DNA from: an uncultured Actinomycetota bacterium
Lineage (GTDB): Bacteria; Actinomycetota; Actinomycetes; JAFAQI01
Direction of reading: 5' to 3'
DNA length: 64,000 bases
Assembly: GCA_963770565.1 (NCBI GenBank)
Contig: CAVYQE010000001.1
Coordinates: 1,312,001 to 1,376,000, forward strand
Part shown: one piece after another, positions 45,667 through 59,987 of the stretch
Layout of the letters: the number at the start of each line of letters is the position of its first letter
Numbering within the stretch: the stretch's first letter is position 1
Position numbers and translations under genes: made by a program
Notes under the pieces: model-generated
Told to the model about the DNA's origin: nothing
Databases searched by the model: none
The model's input: the letters and a program-made list of their open reading frames with translations, nothing else

Positions 45667-46827
45667 TCAGGTCCGATGGACTTCGATTCGGCCTTGGGCG
45701 TTGCGGGTGATGGCCCAGTTGGTGTGGTGGACGAGCCAGTGGTGGAACATGCACAGATAGGCGCAGTTGTGAAGGTCGGTGCGACCGAGGTGCTCCCAGT
45801 AGTCGAGATGGTGCAGCTGGCAGCGGTCGAGCCCGGCTTGGCAGTCCGGGAACACGCAGCCGCGGTCGCGGAGTGCGGCGGCGCGGCGCTGGGCCCGGCT
45901 GAAGCTGCGCGGGGAGCGGCCGAGGTCGAGGATCTCGGATGGCCCGCCGAGCACGGCCGGGATCCAGCCGGCGTCGCAGGCGAGGCGTCGCGCGATGTTG
46001 GGCGTGATCGGCTGGCCGTTGAGCGTCGCGGGCGGCACGTCGCTCTGGGCTAGCCCGTCGCGAAGCTCGGACCAGTCGATGCTGACGATCAGCTGCGGCC
46101 GGTCGCCGCCGTGGTCCGGCAGGGTGCCGCCGGCGAGCGCGAGGCGGGCGAGCTCGACCACGGCGTCGGCGTATCGCTGCCGGGCGGTGCGGTCGTCCTC
46201 GGATCCGGTCGACTTGATCAACGGTGCGAAGGCGGCGCCGAGGGTGGCGGCAGACTCGGGGTCGAGCATCCCGCTGACGCTGGTCATGCCGTCGAAGGTC
46301 GAGGAGAGGGTGAGCCAGCGGTCGGCGTATTTGCGTTGCGCCGCGGCCTCCTCGTCCTCGTCGGCGCCCGAGCGGATCCGGACCTGCTGGCAGAGTTGGC
46401 CGAGCAGGCGTGGGTCGTGGTCGCGGGCGAACTCAAGGAGCTCGGGTCCGGCTGCGGTCCGCCAGCCGGGGTCGAGCTGGCCGAGGCAGCCGAGCAGGAC
46501 CTTGGCGTGGTCATGGTTGATCTCACCGGCGATCAACGCGGCCGCGACCTCGGGTCGAGCCGGCAGCTGGCGGGCGACCCACATCCGGCGAGCCGCATCA
46601 GCGGGCGCGAGGTACTGCTCCTCGATCAGCCAGGACTTGGCGGTCCGGGCGCATTCGGCCACGGTGACGTCGCGCGCTTCAAGGGCTTGCAGCCTCAGCG
46701 AGATCAGCCCATCCAGCCGGGCCTGGGCCTGGAGCAGCATCTCGGTCTCACACAGCAGGGTCGGCTCGGCCAGGTCGTGCACGTCGACAGTGGCGAGCGC
46801 GTCGATCGCCGACAGCAGCTCTGACAT
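45667..46827 (-). CDS. DUF222 + HNH endonuclease (13E12-repeat-like protein)
   Basis: RTARQRYADA, ARRLACDA, LDLGRSPR, RDRGCVFPDC...HHLDYW...TDLHNCAYLCMFHH. Confidence 0.88.
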   Translation of the reverse strand: MSELLSAIDALATVDVHDLAEPTLLCETEMLLQAQARLDGLISLRLQALEARDVTVAECARTAKSWLIEEQYLAPADAARRMWVARQLPARPEVAAALIAGEINHDHAKVLLGCLGQLDPGWRTAAGPELLEFARDHDPRLLGQLCQQVRIRSGADEDEEAAAQRKYADRWLTLSSTFDGMTSVSGMLDPESAATLGAAFAPLIKSTGSEDDRTARQRYADAVVELARLALAGGTLPDHGGDRPQLIVSIDWSELRDGLAQSDVPPATLNGQPITPNIARRLACDAGWIPAVLGGPSEILDLGRSPRSFSRAQRRAAALRDRGCVFPDCQAGLDRCQLHHLDYWEHLGRTDLHNCAYLCMFHHWLVHHTNWAITRNAQGRIEVHRT

Positions 46828-46829
46828 CG

Positions 46830-46844
46830 ATCGCACCCCCGGTA
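46830..46844. repeat. 15-bp target-site duplication, left copy (ATCGCACCCCCGGTA)
   Basis: Identical to 48290-48304. Both copies abut the IS terminal TGT/ACA. Confidence 0.92.
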
Positions 46845-48289
46845 TGTGATGTCTCAGGACATCGGTGACAGTTCTGCATCAGGACATCGGTGACGGTTGA
46901 TGTGTCAGGACTTCGGTGACACTTCGGAGTTTTTGGGCTGTGGGCCGCGGGGTCGGCCGTTGCCGACGTAGTGGATGCCGGGTGCTGGTCGGCTGTGCTC
47001 GATGAGGATCTCGCCGTTGAGATCACTGACGAGGACCTGGTTGCCGTCGGTGACGATGAGGACCTGTTGGAATCGGTGGGGTCCGCCGACCATGTAGTGG
47101 ACGGCGTCGAGCATGAAGGTGCCGCCGCTGGTCAGTGTCTTGAGGTGAGTGTCGGCGGGCAGGTCCGTGGGCACCGGTGGTGGCGCGGGCCGGTAGCGGT
47201 TGGCGGCAGGCCGTTCGAGCCAGGCGGGACGGTCGGGCGTGGGACGTGGCGGCTCGGCTTTCGGGGTCGCTTCCCACGCGGTCACGGGGGTTACCCGCCC
47301 GGGCAGCGCCTGGTGGGGTCGTTCGGTGTTGTAGATGTGGTCGAAGGTGTCGACCTGGGCTTGCAGCTCGTCGAGAGTGTCGGCGAGCGGCTGCTTGTCG
47401 AGCTAGCGGAACAGGGTCTGGTGGAACCGTTCGTTCTTGCCTTGCGTGGTCGGCTTGTAGGGCTTGCCGGTGATCGCCTCGATCCCGAGCCGGGACACGT
47501 GGTCGACGAGCTGGCCGACATAGCCGCGCCGGGACGGGTTGAGCGCGAGCGCGTTGTCGGTCAGCAGGCGTTGCGGCACTCCGTGGGCGGCGATTGCCTT
47601 GTCCACCACCGCGATCGCGGCCTCGGCGGTCTCGGTCCACGCGACGTGGGAAGCGACCGCGAAGCGGGAGTGGTCGTCGATGAGCTGGAAGATCACACAC
47701 GTGCGGCCGCCCGGTCAGCACGTACTCGGTGGCGTCGAGCTGCCAGCACGCGTTCGGCGCCGGATAGACGAACCGGCGCCATGCCGACCGTGGTTTCTTC
47801 TTCGGCTCCCGGCGAGCGACGCCCGCCTCGCGGAAGATCCGTGCGAGTGACGCCGTGGATGGGACTTGGGGCAGGCCCATCGCGCGCATCTTCTCGTGCA
47901 CGCTGATCGGCCCATGATCAAGACCCGACGCCTCCAGAGCCGCACGGACACCCACCGCCTGCGCTTTGACCTGGTCGGTCAGCGTCGACGGGCTCGACCT
48001 CGGCCGCCGGGACCGAGGCTCAAGCACCGCCGCTGGCCCATCGTCCCGGGCACGTCTCCGCAGCTCGTAGAAGGACTTCCGGGAGATGCCGTGCTCGGCG
48101 AAGAACGTCGTCACCGCCCCACGCGGTGCATCATCAGGCCACTGCGAGATCGCGAGGCGGACACGAGGATCAATGGGTTCGCTGATCGCCATCGCCCGAG
48201 AATCACGGCCAAAGTGTCACCACCAACATCACCGGAAGTATCACCGATGTCCTGACACAGAACTGTCACCGATGTCTTGAGACATGACA
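46845..48289 (-). mobile_element. IS481-family insertion sequence (1445 bp)
   Basis: TGT...ACA ends, about 50-bp imperfect terminal IRs (TGTGATGTCTCAGGACATCGGTGACAGTTCTG / reverse complement TGTCATGTCTCAAGACATCGGTGACAGTTCTG), subterminal CAGGACATCGGTGAC repeats, 15-bp DR, single rve transposase. Confidence 0.92.
46905..48192 (-). pseudogene. IS481 DDE transposase, disrupted
   Basis: PNACWQLD, IDDHSR, LLTDNA, GKNERFHQT, YNTERPHQ pieces. Extra base at about 47710-47712 and in-frame TAG at 47403-47405. Confidence 0.85.
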
Positions 48290-48344: not shown

Positions 48345-48366
48345 ACGATATTGCTGACCACCGACA
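48345..48366 (-). promoter_or_regulatory. RecA-NDp (PafBC-type) DNA-damage promoter
   Basis: Minus strand TGTCGG-TGGTCAGCAA-TATCGT, an exact TGTCGG-N10-TANNNT match. Confidence 0.75.
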
Positions 48367-53497: not shown

Positions 53498-54256
53498 GTG
53501 CGGATTGCCAGGTTCTCCTACGGCGAGGGTGTCGCCTTCGGGATCGTCGAGGACGACCTCGTCGTACCGATCGTCGGTCATCCGTTCGCGCCGATCGAGC
53601 GGACCGAGGTCAAGCTGGCCCGCGCGGAGCTCCGGCTGCTCGCGCCGGTCCTGCCGAGCAAGGTGGTGGCGATCGGGAAGAACTACGCGTCGCATGCCGC
53701 CGAGATGGGCGGCGACGTCCCCGAGCAGCCGCTGATCTTCCTCAAGCCGTCGACCTCGGTGATCGCCGATCGCGACGCGATCGCCTCCCCGCCCTCGTCG
53801 GAGCGGGTCGATTTCGAGGGCGAGCTGGCCGTCGTCATCAGCCGGTTGTGTCGTGACGTGCCGGTCGAGCGGGCGATGGACGTCGTGCTCGGCTACACCT
53901 GCGCCAATGACGTCACGGCGCGCGACCAGCAGCGCAGCGACGGCCAATGGTCGCGGGCCAAGGGCTACGACACGTTCTGTCCGCTCGGGCCGTGGATCGA
54001 GACCGAGGTCGACCCGGCCGACCTCGCGATCTCGACGACCCTGAACGGCGAGGTCAAACAACAGTCGCGGACCTCGTTGCTCGTGCACAAGATCCCCGAA
54101 CTGATCGCCTACATCACTGCATGCATGACCCTGCTGCCCGGTGACGTGATCCTGACCGGTACGCCGGACGGCGTCGGCCCGATGCTGGTCGGCGACGAGG
54201 TAACTGTCGAGATCGAAGGCATCGGCACGCTGACGAACCCGGTTGTCGCGCGATGA
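53498..54256 (+). CDS. Fumarylacetoacetate hydrolase family protein
   Basis: GKNYASHAAE, FLKPST, EGELAVVI, NDVTARD, KGYDTFCPLGP, GDVILTGTP. Confidence 0.92.
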   Translation: MRIARFSYGEGVAFGIVEDDLVVPIVGHPFAPIERTEVKLARAELRLLAPVLPSKVVAIGKNYASHAAEMGGDVPEQPLIFLKPSTSVIADRDAIASPPSSERVDFEGELAVVISRLCRDVPVERAMDVVLGYTCANDVTARDQQRSDGQWSRAKGYDTFCPLGPWIETEVDPADLAISTTLNGEVKQQSRTSLLVHKIPELIAYITACMTLLPGDVILTGTPDGVGPMLVGDEVTVEIEGIGTLTNPVVAR

Positions 54257-55677
54257 CGGTACGCCTGCGGGTCGCGCCGTCACCGACCGGCGACCCGCAC
54301 GTCGGTACGGCGTACATGTCGTTGTTCAACCTTGCCTTTGCGCGGCACGAGGGCGGCAGCTTCATCCTGCGGGTGGAGGACACCGACCGGGCCAGGTTCC
54401 AGGCCGACAGCGAGCAGCAGGTCTACGACACGTTGCACTGGCTCGGGCTCAACTGGGACGAGGGCCCGGACATCGGCGGCCCGCACGCGCCGTACCGGCA
54501 GTCGGAGCGCCTCGAGACCTACCGACCGGTTGCCGACGAGCTGCTCGCCTCGGGTCGGGCGTACCTGTGCTGGTGCACGTCGGAGCGGCTCGCCGAGATG
54601 CGCGAGGCGCAGCAGAAGGCCAAGCGGCCGACCGGCTATGACCGCTTGTGTTTCGGCAAGACCCGCGAGGAGCGGGCCGCGCTGCGCGGTTTCGCTGACG
54701 TCCCAGTCGTCCGGATGCTGGTGCCGGATGACGTGCCGCTGCAATTCTTCGACCTGATCCGGGGCGAGGTCAACGCGCCTCGCCCTGACGACCAAGTGCT
54801 GATGAAGGCGGACGGGTACCCGACCTACCACCTGGCGAACGTTGTCGACGACCACACGATGGGCATCACGCACGTGGTGCGCGGCGAGGAGTGGATCGCC
54901 TCCACGCCGAAGCACCTGCTGCTTTATGACTGGATGGGCTGGCAGCGACCCGCGTTCGCGCACATGCCGTTGCTGCGCAACGCGGACAAGTCGAAGATCT
55001 CGAAGCGGAAGAACCCGGCCGCCCGGCTGACCTGGTTCGTGGAGCAGGGTTTCCTGCCCGAGGCGTTGCGCAACTTCCTCGGGCTGATGGGCTATTCGCT
55101 GCCCGACGGCCAGGAGATCTTCACCTTCGAGGTGATGGTCGAGACCTTCGACTGGTCGCGGGTGAACGCGGCCGGGCCGGTCTTCGACGTCGAGAAGCTG
55201 CGCTGGCTGTCCGGGCACTACATCCGGTCGCTCGACCTTGCCGACTTTGCGCAGCGACTCGTCGACTTCATGGGCGTGGTGGGCGAGCAGGCAGATCTGA
55301 TCCGCCGCGCCGCGCCGCTGGTCCAGGAGCGCGTGTCGACGTTGCTCGAGTCGGCCGAGATGCTGCAGTTCCTCATCGTGGGGGAGTCCTTTGCCGTGGA
55401 CCCCGACGCGGCCGCCAAACAGCTCGGCGAGTCGGCGCGGCCGGCGCTCAAGGCGAGCCTGTCGGCTCTGGAGGATCTCGGCTCGTTCGACCACGCCGAT
55501 ATCGAGGCGGCCCTGCGCGGCGCGTTGGTGGACGGCCTCGGGCTCAAGGCGAGTAAGGCGTTCGGGCCGCTCCGGGTCGCGGTCACCGGCGTCACCGTGT
55601 CGCCGCCACTGTTCGAGTCGATCGAACTGCTCGGCCCCGAAACAACGCTGGCCAGGCTGCGCGCGGCGCTGGGTTAG
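54253..55677 (+). CDS. gltX: Glutamate--tRNA ligase
   Basis: APSPTGDPHVGT (HIGH), RVEDTD, PTYHLANVVDD, RGEEW, KISKR. Confidence 0.96.
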   Translation: MTVRLRVAPSPTGDPHVGTAYMSLFNLAFARHEGGSFILRVEDTDRARFQADSEQQVYDTLHWLGLNWDEGPDIGGPHAPYRQSERLETYRPVADELLASGRAYLCWCTSERLAEMREAQQKAKRPTGYDRLCFGKTREERAALRGFADVPVVRMLVPDDVPLQFFDLIRGEVNAPRPDDQVLMKADGYPTYHLANVVDDHTMGITHVVRGEEWIASTPKHLLLYDWMGWQRPAFAHMPLLRNADKSKISKRKNPAARLTWFVEQGFLPEALRNFLGLMGYSLPDGQEIFTFEVMVETFDWSRVNAAGPVFDVEKLRWLSGHYIRSLDLADFAQRLVDFMGVVGEQADLIRRAAPLVQERVSTLLESAEMLQFLIVGESFAVDPDAAAKQLGESARPALKASLSALEDLGSFDHADIEAALRGALVDGLGLKASKAFGPLRVAVTGVTVSPPLFESIELLGPETTLARLRAALG

Positions 55678-55706: not shown

Positions 55707-55778
55707 TGGGGTATGGGGTAATTGGCAGCCCGGCTGATTCTGGTTCAGCTAGTCTAGGTTCGAGTCCTGGTACCCCAG
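55707..55778 (+). tRNA. tRNA-Gln (CTG)
   Basis: TGGGGTA/TACCCCA acceptor stem, GCTGA-TTCTGGT-TCAGC anticodon arm, GGTTCGAGTCC T arm. CCA not encoded. Confidence 0.96.
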
Positions 55779-55799
55779 CGACCAACTGTTGTTGTGCAA

Positions 55800-55872
55800 G
55801 GCCCCGTCGTCTAGCGGCCTAGGACACCGCCCTCTCAAGGCGGCGGCGCCGGTTCAAATCCGGTCGGGGCTA
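55800..55872 (+). tRNA. tRNA-Glu (CTC)
   Basis: GGCCCCG/CGGGGCT acceptor stem, CCGCC-CTCTCAA-GGCGG anticodon arm, GGTTCAAATCC T arm. CCA not encoded. Confidence 0.96.
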
Positions 55873-56446
55873 CGGTTTCTTGATCATCTTTTTCTAGTTT
55901 TGCGAGGCGGTCCGGGGCGTATCGCCGGAGGATTTCGACCGCCCACTCGACCTTGTCCTCCGTTCGCTGGCCGGATGGCTGCCAGCGAGACCAAAGCTCG
56001 AGGTTCTCCAACCGGTTGTCGAGGCGGTTGCCGTTCTTGTGATGGACGGACTCGTCGGGTCGAAGCGCTCGGCCGAGGTGGCGGGCCATTACCAAGCGGT
56101 GCTCGGTCGTCGAGGAGTCTCCCGCCGAAAGATGACGGAGGTGTGGCGGCACGGGCACCACGAGATAGCCGCGGTTGACGTAACCAGTCCCTGAGACCTC
56201 CCGGACCGGCTTGTCCGCCTGAACGTCACCGAACTTCCGCATCCGCGCGGCGTGGGATTCGCAGAGTTGACGCTTCGCCGCGGGCCGCTTGCACCCCTCG
56301 ACTCTGCATGAGCTGTTGACGCGCCGACCGATCGGGCGATCTGCCTGGACGTCGCCGAGTCGCAGCCAGCGAAGCAAATGAGCATGGCACCAGCCGCGAC
56401 CCTCGGCCTCGCGGCCGCAACCTTCGACGGAACATTTCTTCGGCAT
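55835..56446 (-). CDS. Free-standing HNH endonuclease with two N-terminal C-x4-C-x9-C-x2-H repeats
   Basis: CSVEGC...GWCHAH...GDVQAD repeated as CRVEGC...QLCESH...GDVQAD. Then EHRLVMARHLGR.L...E.VHHKNGNRLDNRLENLELW. GGAGG RBS. Confidence 0.85.
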   Translation of the reverse strand: MPKKCSVEGCGREAEGRGWCHAHLLRWLRLGDVQADRPIGRRVNSSCRVEGCKRPAAKRQLCESHAARMRKFGDVQADKPVREVSGTGYVNRGYLVVPVPPHLRHLSAGDSSTTEHRLVMARHLGRALRPDESVHHKNGNRLDNRLENLELWSRWQPSGQRTEDKVEWAVEILRRYAPDRLAKLEKDDQETVAPTGFEPAPPP

Positions 56447-56464
56447 GAATTCCCTCCGCGATCA

Positions 56465-56486
56465 ACGATGCTCGAGGGCACCGACG
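56465..56486 (-). promoter_or_regulatory. RecA-NDp-like promoter of the HNH gene
   Basis: Minus strand CGTCGG-TGCCCTCGAG-CATCGT: correct N10 spacing, two mismatches to TGTCGG-N10-TANNNT. Confidence 0.5.
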
Positions 56487-56552
56487 AGATCGGTCGCGGT
56501 GCGATCCGCCTGTGGAAAGCCGCGGTCCGGTGTGGGCCGGACCGCGAAGGGG

Positions 56553-57263
56553 CTATCGCCGTAGCGCGGTCGACAGCGCGTGCCCGGCTGCCATCACCGC
56601 TTCGGCGTGCAGCCGGCCGGGGCTGCGGGTGAGCCGGTCGATCGGACCCGACACCGACACCGCGGCGACCGCCCGGCCGTCGTGGCCGAACACCGGCGCC
56701 GACACCGACGCCACCCCGGCCTCGCGCTCGGCCACGCTCGCCGCCCAGCCGCGCCGCCGCACCGTCGCCAGCGTCGCGGCGCTGAATCGCGCCTCGTCCA
56801 TCAGGCTTGCCACGTCATCGATCGGCTCCCAGGCGAGCAGCACCTGCGCCGCCGATCCCGCGGTCATCGGCAGGTCGGCGCCGACCGGCACGGTGTCCCG
56901 CAGGCCGCTGGCGCGCTCGGCTGCCGCGATGCAGCGCCGGATCGTCCCGACCCGGCGATACAACTGCGCGCTCTCGTGGGTGTCCTGGCACAGTTGCTCG
57001 AGGACTGGTCCGGCAGCCCGCTCGAGTGAGCCGTTCCGGCCCGGTCCGGCCAGCTCCGCGAGCCGCGGACCCAGCGCAAATCGGCCGTCCGCGTCGCGCT
57101 CGACGTACCGATGGGCTTCGAGGGCAACTGCGAGGCGGTACGCCGTCGGCCGCGACAGCCCGCTCCGGTCGACCAGCTCGGCGAGTGACGCCGGTCCAAC
57201 GGCAAGGCAGTCAAGGACGACTACCGCCTTGTCAAGAACGCCGACGCTGGTACGCTGTGTCAT
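56553..57263 (-). CDS. IclR-family regulator (NdgR/LtbR-like), divergent from leuCD
   Basis: SVGVLDKAV, GLSRPTAYRL HTH, LPMTAGSAAQVLLAW, GVASVSAPV, SVSGPIDR. Confidence 0.92.
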   Translation of the reverse strand: MTQRTSVGVLDKAVVVLDCLAVGPASLAELVDRSGLSRPTAYRLAVALEAHRYVERDADGRFALGPRLAELAGPGRNGSLERAAGPVLEQLCQDTHESAQLYRRVGTIRRCIAAAERASGLRDTVPVGADLPMTAGSAAQVLLAWEPIDDVASLMDEARFSAATLATVRRRGWAASVAEREAGVASVSAPVFGHDGRAVAAVSVSGPIDRLTRSPGRLHAEAVMAAGHALSTALRR

Positions 57264-57330: not shown

Positions 57331-58701
57331 GTGAGTCAGACGTTGGCGGAGAAGGTCTGGGCCGCGCACCTGGTGCGGAGCGCGGCCGGTGAGCCCGACC
57401 TGCTTTACATCGACCTGCACCTCGTGCACGAGGTCACCAGTGCGCAGGCCTTCGACGGCCTGAGACTGAGCGACCGTTCGGTCCGGCGCCCCGAGCTCAC
57501 GCTCGCCACCGAGGATCACAACGTTCCGACCACGGTCGGCCCGATCGTCGACCCGGTCAGCCGGACCCAGGTCGAAACACTTCGGCGCAACTGCGAGGAG
57601 TTCGGCGTCCGGCTGTTCCCGATGGGTGACGACGGCCAGGGCATCGTTCACGTGATCGGCCCGCAGCTCGGCCTGACGCAGCCCGGCATGACGGTCGTGT
57701 GCGGCGACAGCCACACGAGCACGCACGGCGCGTTCGGCGCGCTGGCGTTCGGGATCGGGACGAGCGAGGTCGAGCACGTGCTCGCGACCCAGTCGCTGCC
57801 GTTGCAGCGCCCCAAGACGATGGCGGTCGAGGTTTCCGGCGCCCTGCCGGCCGGAGTGACCGCGAAGGATCTCGTCCTCGGCATCATCACTCAGATCGGC
57901 ACCGGCGGCGGCCAGGGCCACGTCATCGAATATCGCGGCGAGGCGATTCGCGGTCTGTCGATGGAGGGCCGGATGACGGTCTGCAACATGTCGATCGAGG
58001 CCGGCGCGCGGGCCGGCATGATCGCGCCCGATGCGACGACCTTCGACTACCTCAAGGGCCGGCCACACGCGCCACAGGGCAACGATTGGGACGCCGCGGT
58101 CGCGTACTGGCAGACGCTGGTCACCGACGACGACGCCCAGTTCGACAAGGTGGTGCACGTCGACGCGACGGCGCTGTCGCCCTGGGTCACCTGGGGGACC
58201 AACCCCGGTCAAGGGGCGCCGCTGTCCGGACATGTGCCGGATCCGAAGGATGCCTCGGACGAGCGGGCGCTGGCCTACATGGGCCTCGCGGCGGGCACGA
58301 TGCTTCGCGACGTCGCGGTCGACACGGTCTTCATCGGCTCGTGCACGAACGGTCGGCTCGAGGACCTGCGCGCGGCCGCCGACGTGCTGCGCGGCCAGCA
58401 GGTCGCGCCCGGCGTGCGGGTCCTCGTCGTACCCGGCTCGGTGGCGGTCAAGCACGACGCCGAGGCGGAGGGTCTGGACAAGGTGTTCGAGGCCGCGGGC
58501 GCGCAGTGGCGCGGCGCCGGTTGCTCGATGTGTCTGGGAATGAACCCCGACAAGCTCGACCCGGGTCAGCGCAGCGCCTCGACCTCCAACCGCAACTTCG
58601 AGGGCCGGCAGGGTCCGGGCGGCCGCACGCACCTGGTGTCGCCGCCGGTCGCGGCCGCAACCGCGATTACGGGTCGGCTGACCGCCCCGGCCGATCTGTA
58701 G
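57331..58701 (+). CDS. leuC: 3-isopropylmalate dehydratase large subunit
   Basis: [60 protein letters not shown]. Confidence 0.97.
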
Positions 58702-59306: not shown

Positions 59307-59444
59307 GTCGATTCGACCGCCGAACGAGTCAAATTTGACGCGCCAGCAGAAAAAGTTGGCCGGAATCGTTGTATGCAGAGCGAATCCGCCCTAGCGTCCA
59401 GCGTCAGGTCGAGGGCGGTCCTCGACGAAAGACGGAGGGTGCAC

Positions 59445-59987
59445 GTGAACAGGGCCGATCTGATCGATGTGATCCGTGACCGTCTCGCCACGGACAAGAA
59501 AACGGCAGAGTCCGCCGTCGACGCAGTGCTTGACACGATCCAGCGTGCGGTCGCGACGGGAGAGCGCGTAGCCATCACTGGCTTCGGTGTTTTCGAGAAG
59601 GTCGAGCGTGCCGCACGAACCGGGCGCAACCCGCGCACCGGCGAGACGGTTCGCGTGAAGAAGACCTCGGTGCCGAAGTTCCGTCCGGGCACGCAGTTCA
59701 AGGGCGTCGTCAGCGGCGCGATCAAGCTCGGCCGGGTTGCCGACGCGGCGACGAAGGCCGCAGCGAAGTCGGCGTCGGCGGGGCCGCGCAAGGCGACCTC
59801 AGCCGCGCGCAGTGCTGCGAAGAAGGCGGCCAAGGCACCGGCGAAGAAGGCTGCGGCAAAGCGGGCTCCCGCGAAGAAGGCGCCGGCCAAGAAGGCGCCC
59901 GCGAAGAAGGCCGCCGCGAAGAGGGCGCCGGCCAAGAAGACGACCGCCAAGAAGACGACCGCCAAGAAGACCACGGCGCGTCGCTAA
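59445..59987 (+). CDS. hupB: HU-family DNA-binding protein with a PAKK-repeat tail (HupB/HupS-like)
   Basis: [22 protein letters not shown], plus Lys/Ala/Pro repeat tail. GGAGG RBS. Confidence 0.9.

Follow-up and report, generated by a model that had tools for sequence, protein, structure and literature searches.

A putative homing-type HNH endonuclease cassette with a PafBC-type promoter at the tRNA-Glu(CTC) gene of Actinomycetota

Much is known about free-standing homing endonuclease genes in phages and organelles; to our knowledge, long-lived representatives in bacterial chromosomes have hardly been documented. Here, we analyze a 64,000-nucleotide (nt) stretch of DNA (hereafter, the window) from an uncultured Actinomycetota bacterium (GenBank assembly GCA_963770565.1, contig CAVYQE010000001.1, positions 1,312,001 to 1,376,000), in which a gene for a 203-amino-acid (aa) HNH protein runs head-on into a tRNA-Glu(CTC) gene. 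In our view, this locus is probably a free-standing cassette encoding a homing-type HNH endonuclease; its target would be the tRNA-Glu gene, and its expression would go with that of the DNA damage regulon. The closest functional analogue would be SegB of phage T4, which, as far as the cited account extends, is a free-standing homing endonuclease encoded in a tRNA gene cluster, acts at a site that includes a tRNA T-loop motif, and spreads its own gene along with neighboring tRNA genes by gene conversion, with cleavage shown (PMC2330249). Judged against that account, the likeness lies in a stand-alone nuclease among tRNA genes and in the apparent co-exchange of the tRNA with the nuclease gene. 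However, SegB is a GIY-YIG enzyme that spreads in co-infections of a lytic phage, whereas here HNH_3 and zinc fingers are combined in the chromosomes of three classes, the gene is tied to one particular tRNA and a predicted host DNA damage promoter, and cleavage is predicted from sequence comparison.

With I-HmuI, the nuclease shares the Pfam family HNH_3, and this enzyme is its best, albeit weak, structural match; I-HmuI is intron-encoded, whereas the gene described here is free-standing. The nearest proteins outside tRNA-Glu loci are the products of free-standing HNH genes of actinophages (35-44% identity, 65 phage records), for example, gene 43 of Gordonia phage Zitch, with which the zinc-finger and HNH architecture is shared over 85-94% of the length (14 best records). 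Those genes lie between phage genes, whereas the chromosomal clade occupies a fixed site of its own and is preceded by a PafBC-type promoter; in the annotation of the listed phage hits, we found no adjacent tRNA-Glu, although the flanks themselves were not inspected. The DUF222/HNH proteins of mycobacteria, known as 'REP13E12'-type proteins, are induced by DNA damage. In the cited portion of one study, five putative HNH endonucleases appear among the genes with RecA-dependent induction (PMC8151990). The DUF222/HNH proteins resemble the present one in being HNH nucleases that lack a known role and are linked to the damage response of actinobacteria, but differ from it in combining DUF222 with HNH in about 390-470 aa and in occurring in several copies per genome, whereas the nuclease studied here is single-copy and linked to a tRNA gene. 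The PafBC (RecA-NDp) regulon has been described in mycobacteria (PMC8635444, PMC6789036), and the regulator is, according to the section cited, activated by single-stranded DNA (PMC11804915). The consensus given in the cited text is tGTCgg(N10)tA(N3)T, with a strict GTC in the region -23 to -28; the -10 element is of the normal kind, and a -35 element is lacking (PMC8635444). The papers found on this regulon, their supplements aside, do not list the nuclease family as a member; outside subscription journals and supplements, we found no paper describing the chromosomal family, its linkage to tRNA-Glu or its PafBC-type promoter.

The 203-aa protein consists of two Cys3His zinc-finger repeats (C-x4-C-x9-C-x2-H...GDVQAD) and an HNH core (VHHKNGNRLDNRLENL). 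An earlier note on this DNA had proposed this architecture, and it was confirmed by translation and by a match to Pfam HNH_3 (PF13392) at residues 116-154 (E 2.9e-10, 40.1 bits against a cut-off of 24.8). Matches were obtained to 18 PHROG families, 16 of which are named HNH endonuclease, and a search of NCBIfam gave no meaningful match. Across 14 orthologs, 57 columns are invariant; all eight zinc ligands (C5, C10, C20 and H23 in repeat 1) are conserved throughout, as are H135, H136, N144 and N148, which we take, by analogy, to fill the catalytic, metal-binding and structural roles of the beta-beta-alpha-metal motif. The 203-aa protein is thus predicted to be an active nuclease. The number of zinc-finger repeats varies from one to four among homologs. 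Among 1.84 billion representatives, 2,548 clusters belong to the wider family at E 1e-30 or better, and there was no sign of a plasmid-borne form, plasmid records yielding only four weak matches. The ratio of non-synonymous to synonymous substitution rates (dN/dS) is 0.09-0.23 in the 10 of 11 close pairs for which dS was estimable, dS being near saturation in most of them; intact copies of the gene are under purifying selection.

The site of the gene is nearly constant. Peptide patterns that were blind to tRNAs, applied to one genome per species, detected 118 relatives, the best 80 of which were analyzed; these represent Actinomycetes (Frankiales/Mycobacteriales bins), Acidimicrobiia and Nitriliruptoria, among the last of which is the cultured Salsipaludibacter albus (strain AS10, locus L063). 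In 76 of the 80 loci, a tRNA-Glu(CTC) gene lies just downstream in convergent orientation. Three of the four exceptions are found on contigs that end 61, 101 and 160 nt after the stop codon, and in the fourth (L038), the upstream IclR-leuC genes are retained and the tRNA side is lost. The gap between the stop codon and the tRNA is at most 100 nt in 70 of 75 measured loci, and 1.9 kb and 1.0 kb of other DNA intervene in L082 and L106, respectively. Within the window's family, all 17 loci with the nuclease core are convergent to tRNA-Gln/tRNA-Glu(CTC). The upstream neighbor, in contrast, varies: with 99 of 143 candidate frames scanned, 50 loci gave at least 20 Pfam families, including IclR, P-loop kinase, phosphate-binding protein, DNA ligase, LuxR, MazF and 6-phosphogluconate dehydrogenase. 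In L065 and L089, the order is gltX, tRNA-Gln, nuclease gene and inverted tRNA-Glu; the nuclease gene and tRNA-Glu appear to have been flipped there as one piece. The expectation of the earlier note that homologs would lie next to, and converge on, tRNA genes was thus borne out.

A tRNA-targeting integrative element (prophage, integrative and conjugative element or genomic island) was also considered and rejected, given the one-ORF insert and the lack of an integrase and an att repeat. Only one open reading frame (ORF) lies between tRNA-Glu and the IclR gene, and no integrase families were seen among the upstream neighbors of the 50 loci. As the earlier note had maintained, the 3' end of the tRNA is not duplicated in the window: its last 23 nt match once at up to three mismatches.

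The nuclease gene is patchily distributed and present in a single copy in the genome of the window (4.43 Mb, 11 contigs, 94.9% complete). In a first sample, orthologs with 53-74% identity were identified in 16 of 24 other genomes of the same family and in none of 16 genomes of other families. Within the family, 23 of 36 genomes contain a match, one locus each (9 of 13 among high-quality genomes), and in a sample of the class, 25 of 401 genomes carry the nuclease; outside the family, carriers number 9 of 380, and a single other family accounts for six of these. Empty alleles at the gltX-tRNA locus of relatives, as anticipated in the earlier note, were found in four genomes: the tRNA is directly adjoined by the IclR gene in G005 and G017 and is followed by a P-loop kinase gene in G007 and G010. 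The empty G017 and the carrier G006 belong to the same genus. Broken copies occur as well, with frameshifts in G016 and G044 and the loss of one finger in G021.

The history of the nuclease gene conflicts with that of its flank. GltX is encoded 100-150 nt away, yet pairwise identities of GltX and the nuclease are uncorrelated (Spearman -0.01, 136 pairs; Mantel -0.09). In the gltX tree, the window locus (L001) groups with L007 of G003 (support 100/100), and L006 of G019 with L010 of G009 (97/96). In the nuclease tree (14 rows; the cut or broken L013, L016 and L017 were left out), L007 instead joins L010 (100/99), in the other main clade from the window. Approximately unbiased (AU) tests on the nuclease data rejected L001+L007 (p 2.6e-13) and L006+L010 (p 7.7e-5), as well as a third genus grouping (p 1e-8). 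Among 32 loci with a GltX fragment, the nuclease core is just 61% identical in the closest hosts (GltX at least 85% identical); between classes, where GltX identity goes down to 43%, the core is still 53% identical. The median branch length is 0.31 for the nuclease and 0.10 for GltX.

To locate the boundaries of exchange, identity in sliding 60-nt segments was compared between L001 and L007, the GltX fragments of which are 94% identical. Relative to G003, the DNA of gltX and tRNA-Gln is 85-98% identical (93-98% in the tRNA-Gln region), identity is 22-82% from the spacer between tRNA-Gln and tRNA-Glu to the IclR stop codon, and it is back at about 90% from that codon onward. The replaced block, at approximately 55782-56552, spans about 770 bp with sharp borders and consists of tRNA-Glu, the nuclease gene and its promoter. 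Between these two genomes, tRNA-Glu differs at 13 positions and tRNA-Gln, 20 nt away, is identical; the tRNA-Glu of the window is identical to that of a different genus (G021). Flanks and block lie on single contigs, and there is no long repeat at the right boundary. For the L006/L010 pair, where the upstream genes differ, no clean right boundary was found. The minimal tRNA-adjacent homing element suggested in the earlier note is consistent with the fixed site, patchiness, decay, tree conflict and block, but its proposed extent needs correction: the exchanged unit is not the nuclease gene alone and includes the whole of tRNA-Glu.

The tRNA-Glu(CTC) gene, present in a single copy along with one tRNA-Glu(TTC) gene in the window's genome, is hypervariable only where the nuclease family occurs. 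In the window's family (17 carriers and four empty loci, n = 21), mean pairwise differences are 10.6 for tRNA-Glu(CTC) and 1.3 for tRNA-Gln, a ratio of 8.4, and 30 of 76 columns are variable in the former against 8 of 73 in the latter; another count over 21 family genomes gave 28 variable tRNA-Glu positions of 74. The corresponding values in carriers of the Nitriliruptoraceae (10 loci) are 7.8 and 0.8 (ratio 10.3). In contrast, values of 5.8 and 6.1 (ratio 1.0) were obtained for the HNH-free family f4 (n = 25) and 1.9 and 3.7 (ratio 0.5) for the HNH-free family f13 (n = 22, one locus left out), these two control families being defined by 0 of 22 genomes each in the class sample, with not all control genomes searched individually for the nuclease. 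The variation in tRNA-Glu falls mostly in the acceptor and T stems and includes compensating changes, and the anticodon arm is invariant. Furthermore, tRNA-Glu distance tracks nuclease distance (Mantel 0.36, p 0.0045); with GltX distance, no significant correlation was detected (Mantel 0.16, p 0.11).

Upstream of the nuclease gene, the ribosome-binding site GGAGGG and the motif CGTCGG-N10-CATCGT are present as the earlier note had described them, and its assignment of the latter to a damage-type (PafBC) promoter is supported by several observations. The motif, cGTCGG-N10-cATCGT, matches every well-conserved position of the published PafBC consensus, and its -10 hexamer ends 18 nt before the ATG. 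As in the mycobacterial regulon, so far as the sources consulted describe it, the promoter takes the tGTCgg(N10)tA(N3)T form with a strict GTC and no -35 element, and PafB and PafC are encoded, in the window's genome by tandem genes with HTH_PafC+WYL and WYL+WCX domains (contig C10). An initial regular expression with GTCGGTG-like words caught few orthologs, and the looser published form was used; [CT]GTC[GA]-N12-A-N3-T was found within 160 nt upstream of 58 of 76 homologs, in all three classes, whereas the reverse strand of these regions gave 2 of 76, and the expectation from shuffles was 1.4. A GGAGG-type site precedes most ortholog starts. The nuclease gene is therefore predicted to be induced by DNA damage.

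The word TGTGGAAAG, described in the earlier note as DnaA-box-like, is better read as the upstream half of a bipartite promoter, TCCACA-N22-25-GTC motif. TCCACA precedes nearly all family orthologs, and across the genome its spacing to the motif peaks at 22-25 nt (11 sites, against about 0.35 per other spacing), for example, at G000:C1:597532-, C10:132906+ and C2:237120-. Judging from product starts, as opposed to a family scan, such sites lie in front of radA, recN, genes for a RecB-family nuclease, a PLD-like protein and a DUF222-like protein (the last with an SOS box), an integrase-like gene in two copies and the HNH nuclease gene. For mycobacterial PafBC promoters, the portion of the report cited describes no further consensus upstream of the -26 element (PMC8635444); the extra TCCACA found here 22-25 nt upstream of that element sets these promoters apart from the mycobacterial ones as described there and offers a starting point of its own for studying the architecture of PafBC-type promoters in this lineage.

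Other sites of this type were noted in the same genome. Two inverted, nearly identical copies of the bipartite promoter, at G000:C1:400952+ and C1:401892-, lie about 940 nt apart, and each precedes an integrase-like ORF of about 225-230 aa. In the window, one of the four strict TGTCGGTG-N8-TANNNT sites of the genome is located at approximately 48345-48366 on the minus strand, with the word TGTGGATAA before it and an SOS-box-like TCGAAC-N4-GTTCGG after it; downstream lies an ORF of 389 aa without a Pfam match (47023-48192, minus strand), and the next ORF (45667-46836, minus strand) matches Pfam DUF222. At G000:C1:814953-, C11:514833- and C1:1030208+, too, an SOS box (TCGAAC-N4-GTTCGA) comes immediately after a PafBC-type motif, and the encoded proteins (about 470, about 470 and 389 aa, respectively) are DUF222/13E12-like by eye only. 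The two proteins of about 470 aa are preceded by the strict motif and the SOS box, and the 389-aa one by the bipartite motif and the SOS box. These three genes seem to be under double control by PafBC and the SOS response.

Taken together, a fixed site with occupied, empty and decayed alleles, a history in conflict with the flanks, co-transfer of an adjacent marker and diversification of an adjacent essential gene form the signature of a homing endonuclease gene. Three hallmarks of such genes can be recognized at this locus: the same site is occupied in some genomes and empty in others (76 of 80 loci; four empty alleles), the conflict with the flanks is apparent from the trees, the AU tests, the Mantel value of -0.09 and the block, and the flanking marker tRNA-Glu is replaced along with the nuclease gene, as reflected in the Mantel value of 0.36. 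Under this interpretation, the nuclease would recognize, via its variable zinc-finger array, sequence within or next to tRNA-Glu(CTC) alleles that are not its own and would then nick or cut there. Recombinational repair templated by a cassette-bearing copy could then bring in the nuclease gene along with the resistant tRNA-Glu allele that belongs to it, and the left homology anchor would be tRNA-Gln, which is identical. Control by PafBC would ensure that the nuclease is made when recA, radA and recN are also induced, and its expression may coincide with the entry of foreign single-stranded DNA into the cell. In a more speculative version, which we regard as possible but doubtful, the element would be 'zygotically induced': the nuclease would be produced when donor DNA enters by conjugation or transformation, would cut the resident tRNA-Glu(CTC) gene and would be copied in with the resistant allele, so that, over repeated rounds, the zinc-finger array (one to four repeats) and the stems of an essential tRNA encoded by a single gene would be locked in an arms race. 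Such an arms race, if real, would explain why tRNA-Glu is about 8-10-fold more variable than its neighbor in carriers of two classes.

Several points weigh against a homing cassette. Cleavage, homing and induction are put forward on comparative inference throughout, and the counts of 76 of 80 loci and 17 of 17 family loci are not independent, given that the genomes of the two sets overlap. The groups submitted to the AU tests were taken from genus labels and the gltX tree and were chosen after the nuclease tree had been inspected. In the 80-row tree, the classes largely cluster (7 changes for Nitriliruptoria and 15 for Actinomycetes, each fewer than in any of 500 label shuffles), so that exchange appears to occur mainly among relatives, and a deep vertical component is likely. 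At least two of the empty sites, L022 (G010) and L023 (G007), contain, 60 nt after tRNA-Glu, cacagttgctacgcaac..., which resembles GTTGC-N3-GCAAC, an inverted repeat that precedes the promoter in L004, L005 and L011; these two sites seem to have lost a former copy by deletion and do not look like never-invaded targets. Nuclease-free genomes share tRNA-Glu alleles with carriers (L021 with L010; L023 with L014/L015), and the tRNA allele alone therefore does not decide occupancy. At the protein level, a PDB sequence search with an ortholog profile gave no match at E 0.01. The structural model (AlphaFold, predicted local distance difference test 80) had I-HmuI (1u3e) as its top match in both searches, weak each time: E 0.27 with Foldseek, and with VIA, Z 5.1 and a root-mean-square deviation of 4.5 for 68 aligned residues over residues 82-157. 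Finally, nearly all genomes are metagenome bins, in which mosaicism could be simulated by assembly chimeras formed at the identical tRNA-Gln.

A gene that benefits its host would be equally expected to show low dN/dS and a conserved promoter of the host type. The nuclease could accordingly be a damage-induced accessory enzyme for repair or defense, for instance, against elements integrating at tRNA-Glu, kept in place by synteny, with its alleles shuffled by ordinary recombination and without self-propagation. We judge this unlikely, though it is the alternative that deserves most attention: tRNA 3' ends are known integration sites, the PafBC-type promoter is found at 58 of 76 homologs and shares its bipartite form with radA and recN, the gene is single-copy and under purifying selection, and the classes largely cluster in the tree. 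However, a beneficial role leaves unexplained why the tRNA side is constant over three classes while the other side varies, and why tRNA-Glu is hypervariable only in carrier lineages and co-varies with the nuclease. Frequent loss and decay (13 of 36 family genomes without a match and three broken copies) argue against a strong benefit, and neither an integrase nor an att repeat was seen at any examined locus. The more specific alternative of the earlier note, a domesticated nuclease aimed at integrating elements, found no direct support.

Linkage and co-variation of the nuclease and tRNA-Glu would also fit a pair acting at the RNA level, in which the HNH protein damages or processes tRNA-Glu under stress and the linked allele tolerates it, similar to a toxin and its immunity factor; the compensated changes in the acceptor and T stems, which keep the tRNA working, agree with this. 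We nevertheless regard such a pair as improbable, given that HNH_3 proteins and I-HmuI, the closest structural match, are DNA endonucleases, that the nearest relatives outside these loci are free-standing HNH genes of phages, and that an activity on RNA offers no reason for the location at a tRNA gene. Least probable of all, to the point of being hard to entertain, is an ordinary, vertically inherited gene with mosaicism from chimeric assemblies and fast local evolution: most genomes are indeed bins with many contigs, contigs from different strains could have been joined at the identical 73-nt tRNA-Gln and the nuclease branches are longer than those of GltX (0.31 against 0.10), but a chimera would need two switches per contig and the IclR-side boundary lacks a repeat, the same pattern recurs across independent samples and classes, dN/dS of 0.09-0.23 rules out runaway protein evolution in place, and between classes the nuclease core is better conserved than GltX (53% against 43%).

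If the homing mechanism holds, selfish nucleases would be among the forces that can diversify an essential tRNA gene, and a reason is suggested for the recurrence of HNH nucleases of unknown role in actinobacterial damage regulons. The family would offer a clean natural system, with one fixed target, a single tRNA-Glu(CTC) gene, many occupied, empty and decayed alleles, an exchange unit of about 770 bp with sharp borders, and a promoter that would tie a selfish nuclease to the LexA-independent damage response of actinobacteria. The variable zinc-finger arrays, paired with variable tRNA stems, would provide a natural data set for protein-DNA recognition.

The sequence features of the solo 203-aa gene convergent on tRNA-Glu were all found where the earlier note had placed them; they are listed in Table 1 along with the flanking genes and, as a side observation, a gene for an HU-type protein.

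Table 1. Features of the nuclease locus and its surroundings, in coordinates of the window.
Feature	Position	Strand	Evidence or remark
GltX	54253-55677	+	flank
tRNA-Gln(CTG)	55707-55779	+	ARAGORN; left conserved anchor of the variable cassette
Variable cassette: spacer, tRNA-Glu(CTC), HNH gene and promoter region	~55782-56552	.	comparison with the closest relative, G003
tRNA-Glu(CTC)	55800-55873	+	ARAGORN
HNH nuclease ORF	55835-56446	-	203 aa, ATG start
Non-conserved C-terminal tail (19 codons and TGA), antisense into the tRNA	55835-55894	-	alignment, stop positions, DNA comparison
Conserved part of the HNH gene (residues 1-184)	55895-56446	-	ortholog alignment
HNH_3 nuclease core (residues 116-154), predicted	55985-56101	-	Pfam PF13392
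Zinc-finger repeat 2 (C47-x4-C52-x9-C62-x2-H65 ... GDVQAD; residues 47-78)	56213-56308	-	translation
Zinc-finger repeat 1 (C5-x4-C10-x9-C20-x2-H23 ... GDVQAD; residues 5-36)	56339-56434	-	translation
Shine-Dalgarno GGAGGG, 5 nt before ATG	56452-56457	-	sequence
PafBC-type promoter, cGTCGG (-26 element, 56481-56486)-N10-cATCGT (-10, 56465-56470)	56465-56486	-	sequence against the published consensus
TCCACA upstream element (TGTGGA on the + strand), 24 nt before the GTC motif	56511-56516	-	sequence
IclR-family regulator	56553-57263	-	Pfam IclR_C and HTH_IclR; right conserved flank, outside the cassette
leuC-type aconitase	57331-58701	+	flank
HU-type DNA-binding protein; its long C-terminal tail has AKKA/PAKK repeats like that of mycobacterial HupB	59373-59987	+	side observation

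The antisense overlap of the ORF with the 3' part of the tRNA, to which the earlier note had drawn attention, is present in the window and amounts to 39 nt including the TGA stop codon (55835-55873), with the TGA opposite the anticodon. It is not a feature of the family, being found in 7 of 17 family loci and 14 of 75 loci of the wider set; in family loci, the outermost stop positions are 47 nt short of the tRNA and 39 nt within it. Conservation among orthologs reaches YAPxxL, many of them ending in AKLE-TAA, and the window reads GCA AAA CTA GAA AAA where relatives read GCT AAA CTG GAG TAA. The frame across the T4 run at 55898-55901 therefore appears to be ancestral, A-K-L-E being read as in orthologs, and the stop codon to have been lost by substitution; a frameshift at this run, which the earlier note had raised, is unlikely given the match to the ...KLE-TAA ends. 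The last 19 codons of the tail are a reverse reading of the tRNA and the spacer. We thus interpret the 39-nt overlap as a lineage-specific lost stop codon, that is, a non-conserved local accident.

Between the tRNA and the end of the gene lies an AT-rich block, ACTTACTCCAGTTTA; a conserved DNA element was considered here and rejected, the better explanation being the shared ...KLE-TAA gene end, with frame-shifting 1-nt indels in some lineages. In six loci of the Nitriliruptoraceae (L066, L069, L070, L084, L097 and L103), one or two DnaA-box-like words (TTTTCCACAGG ... TATCCACAG) occur in the first 25 nt 3' of tRNA-Glu, before the end of the nuclease gene. In the nuclease-free locus L021 (G005), the IclR frame has no stop codon before the tRNA end and apparently runs antisense into tRNA-Glu, which suggests that such overlaps are not special to the nuclease gene.

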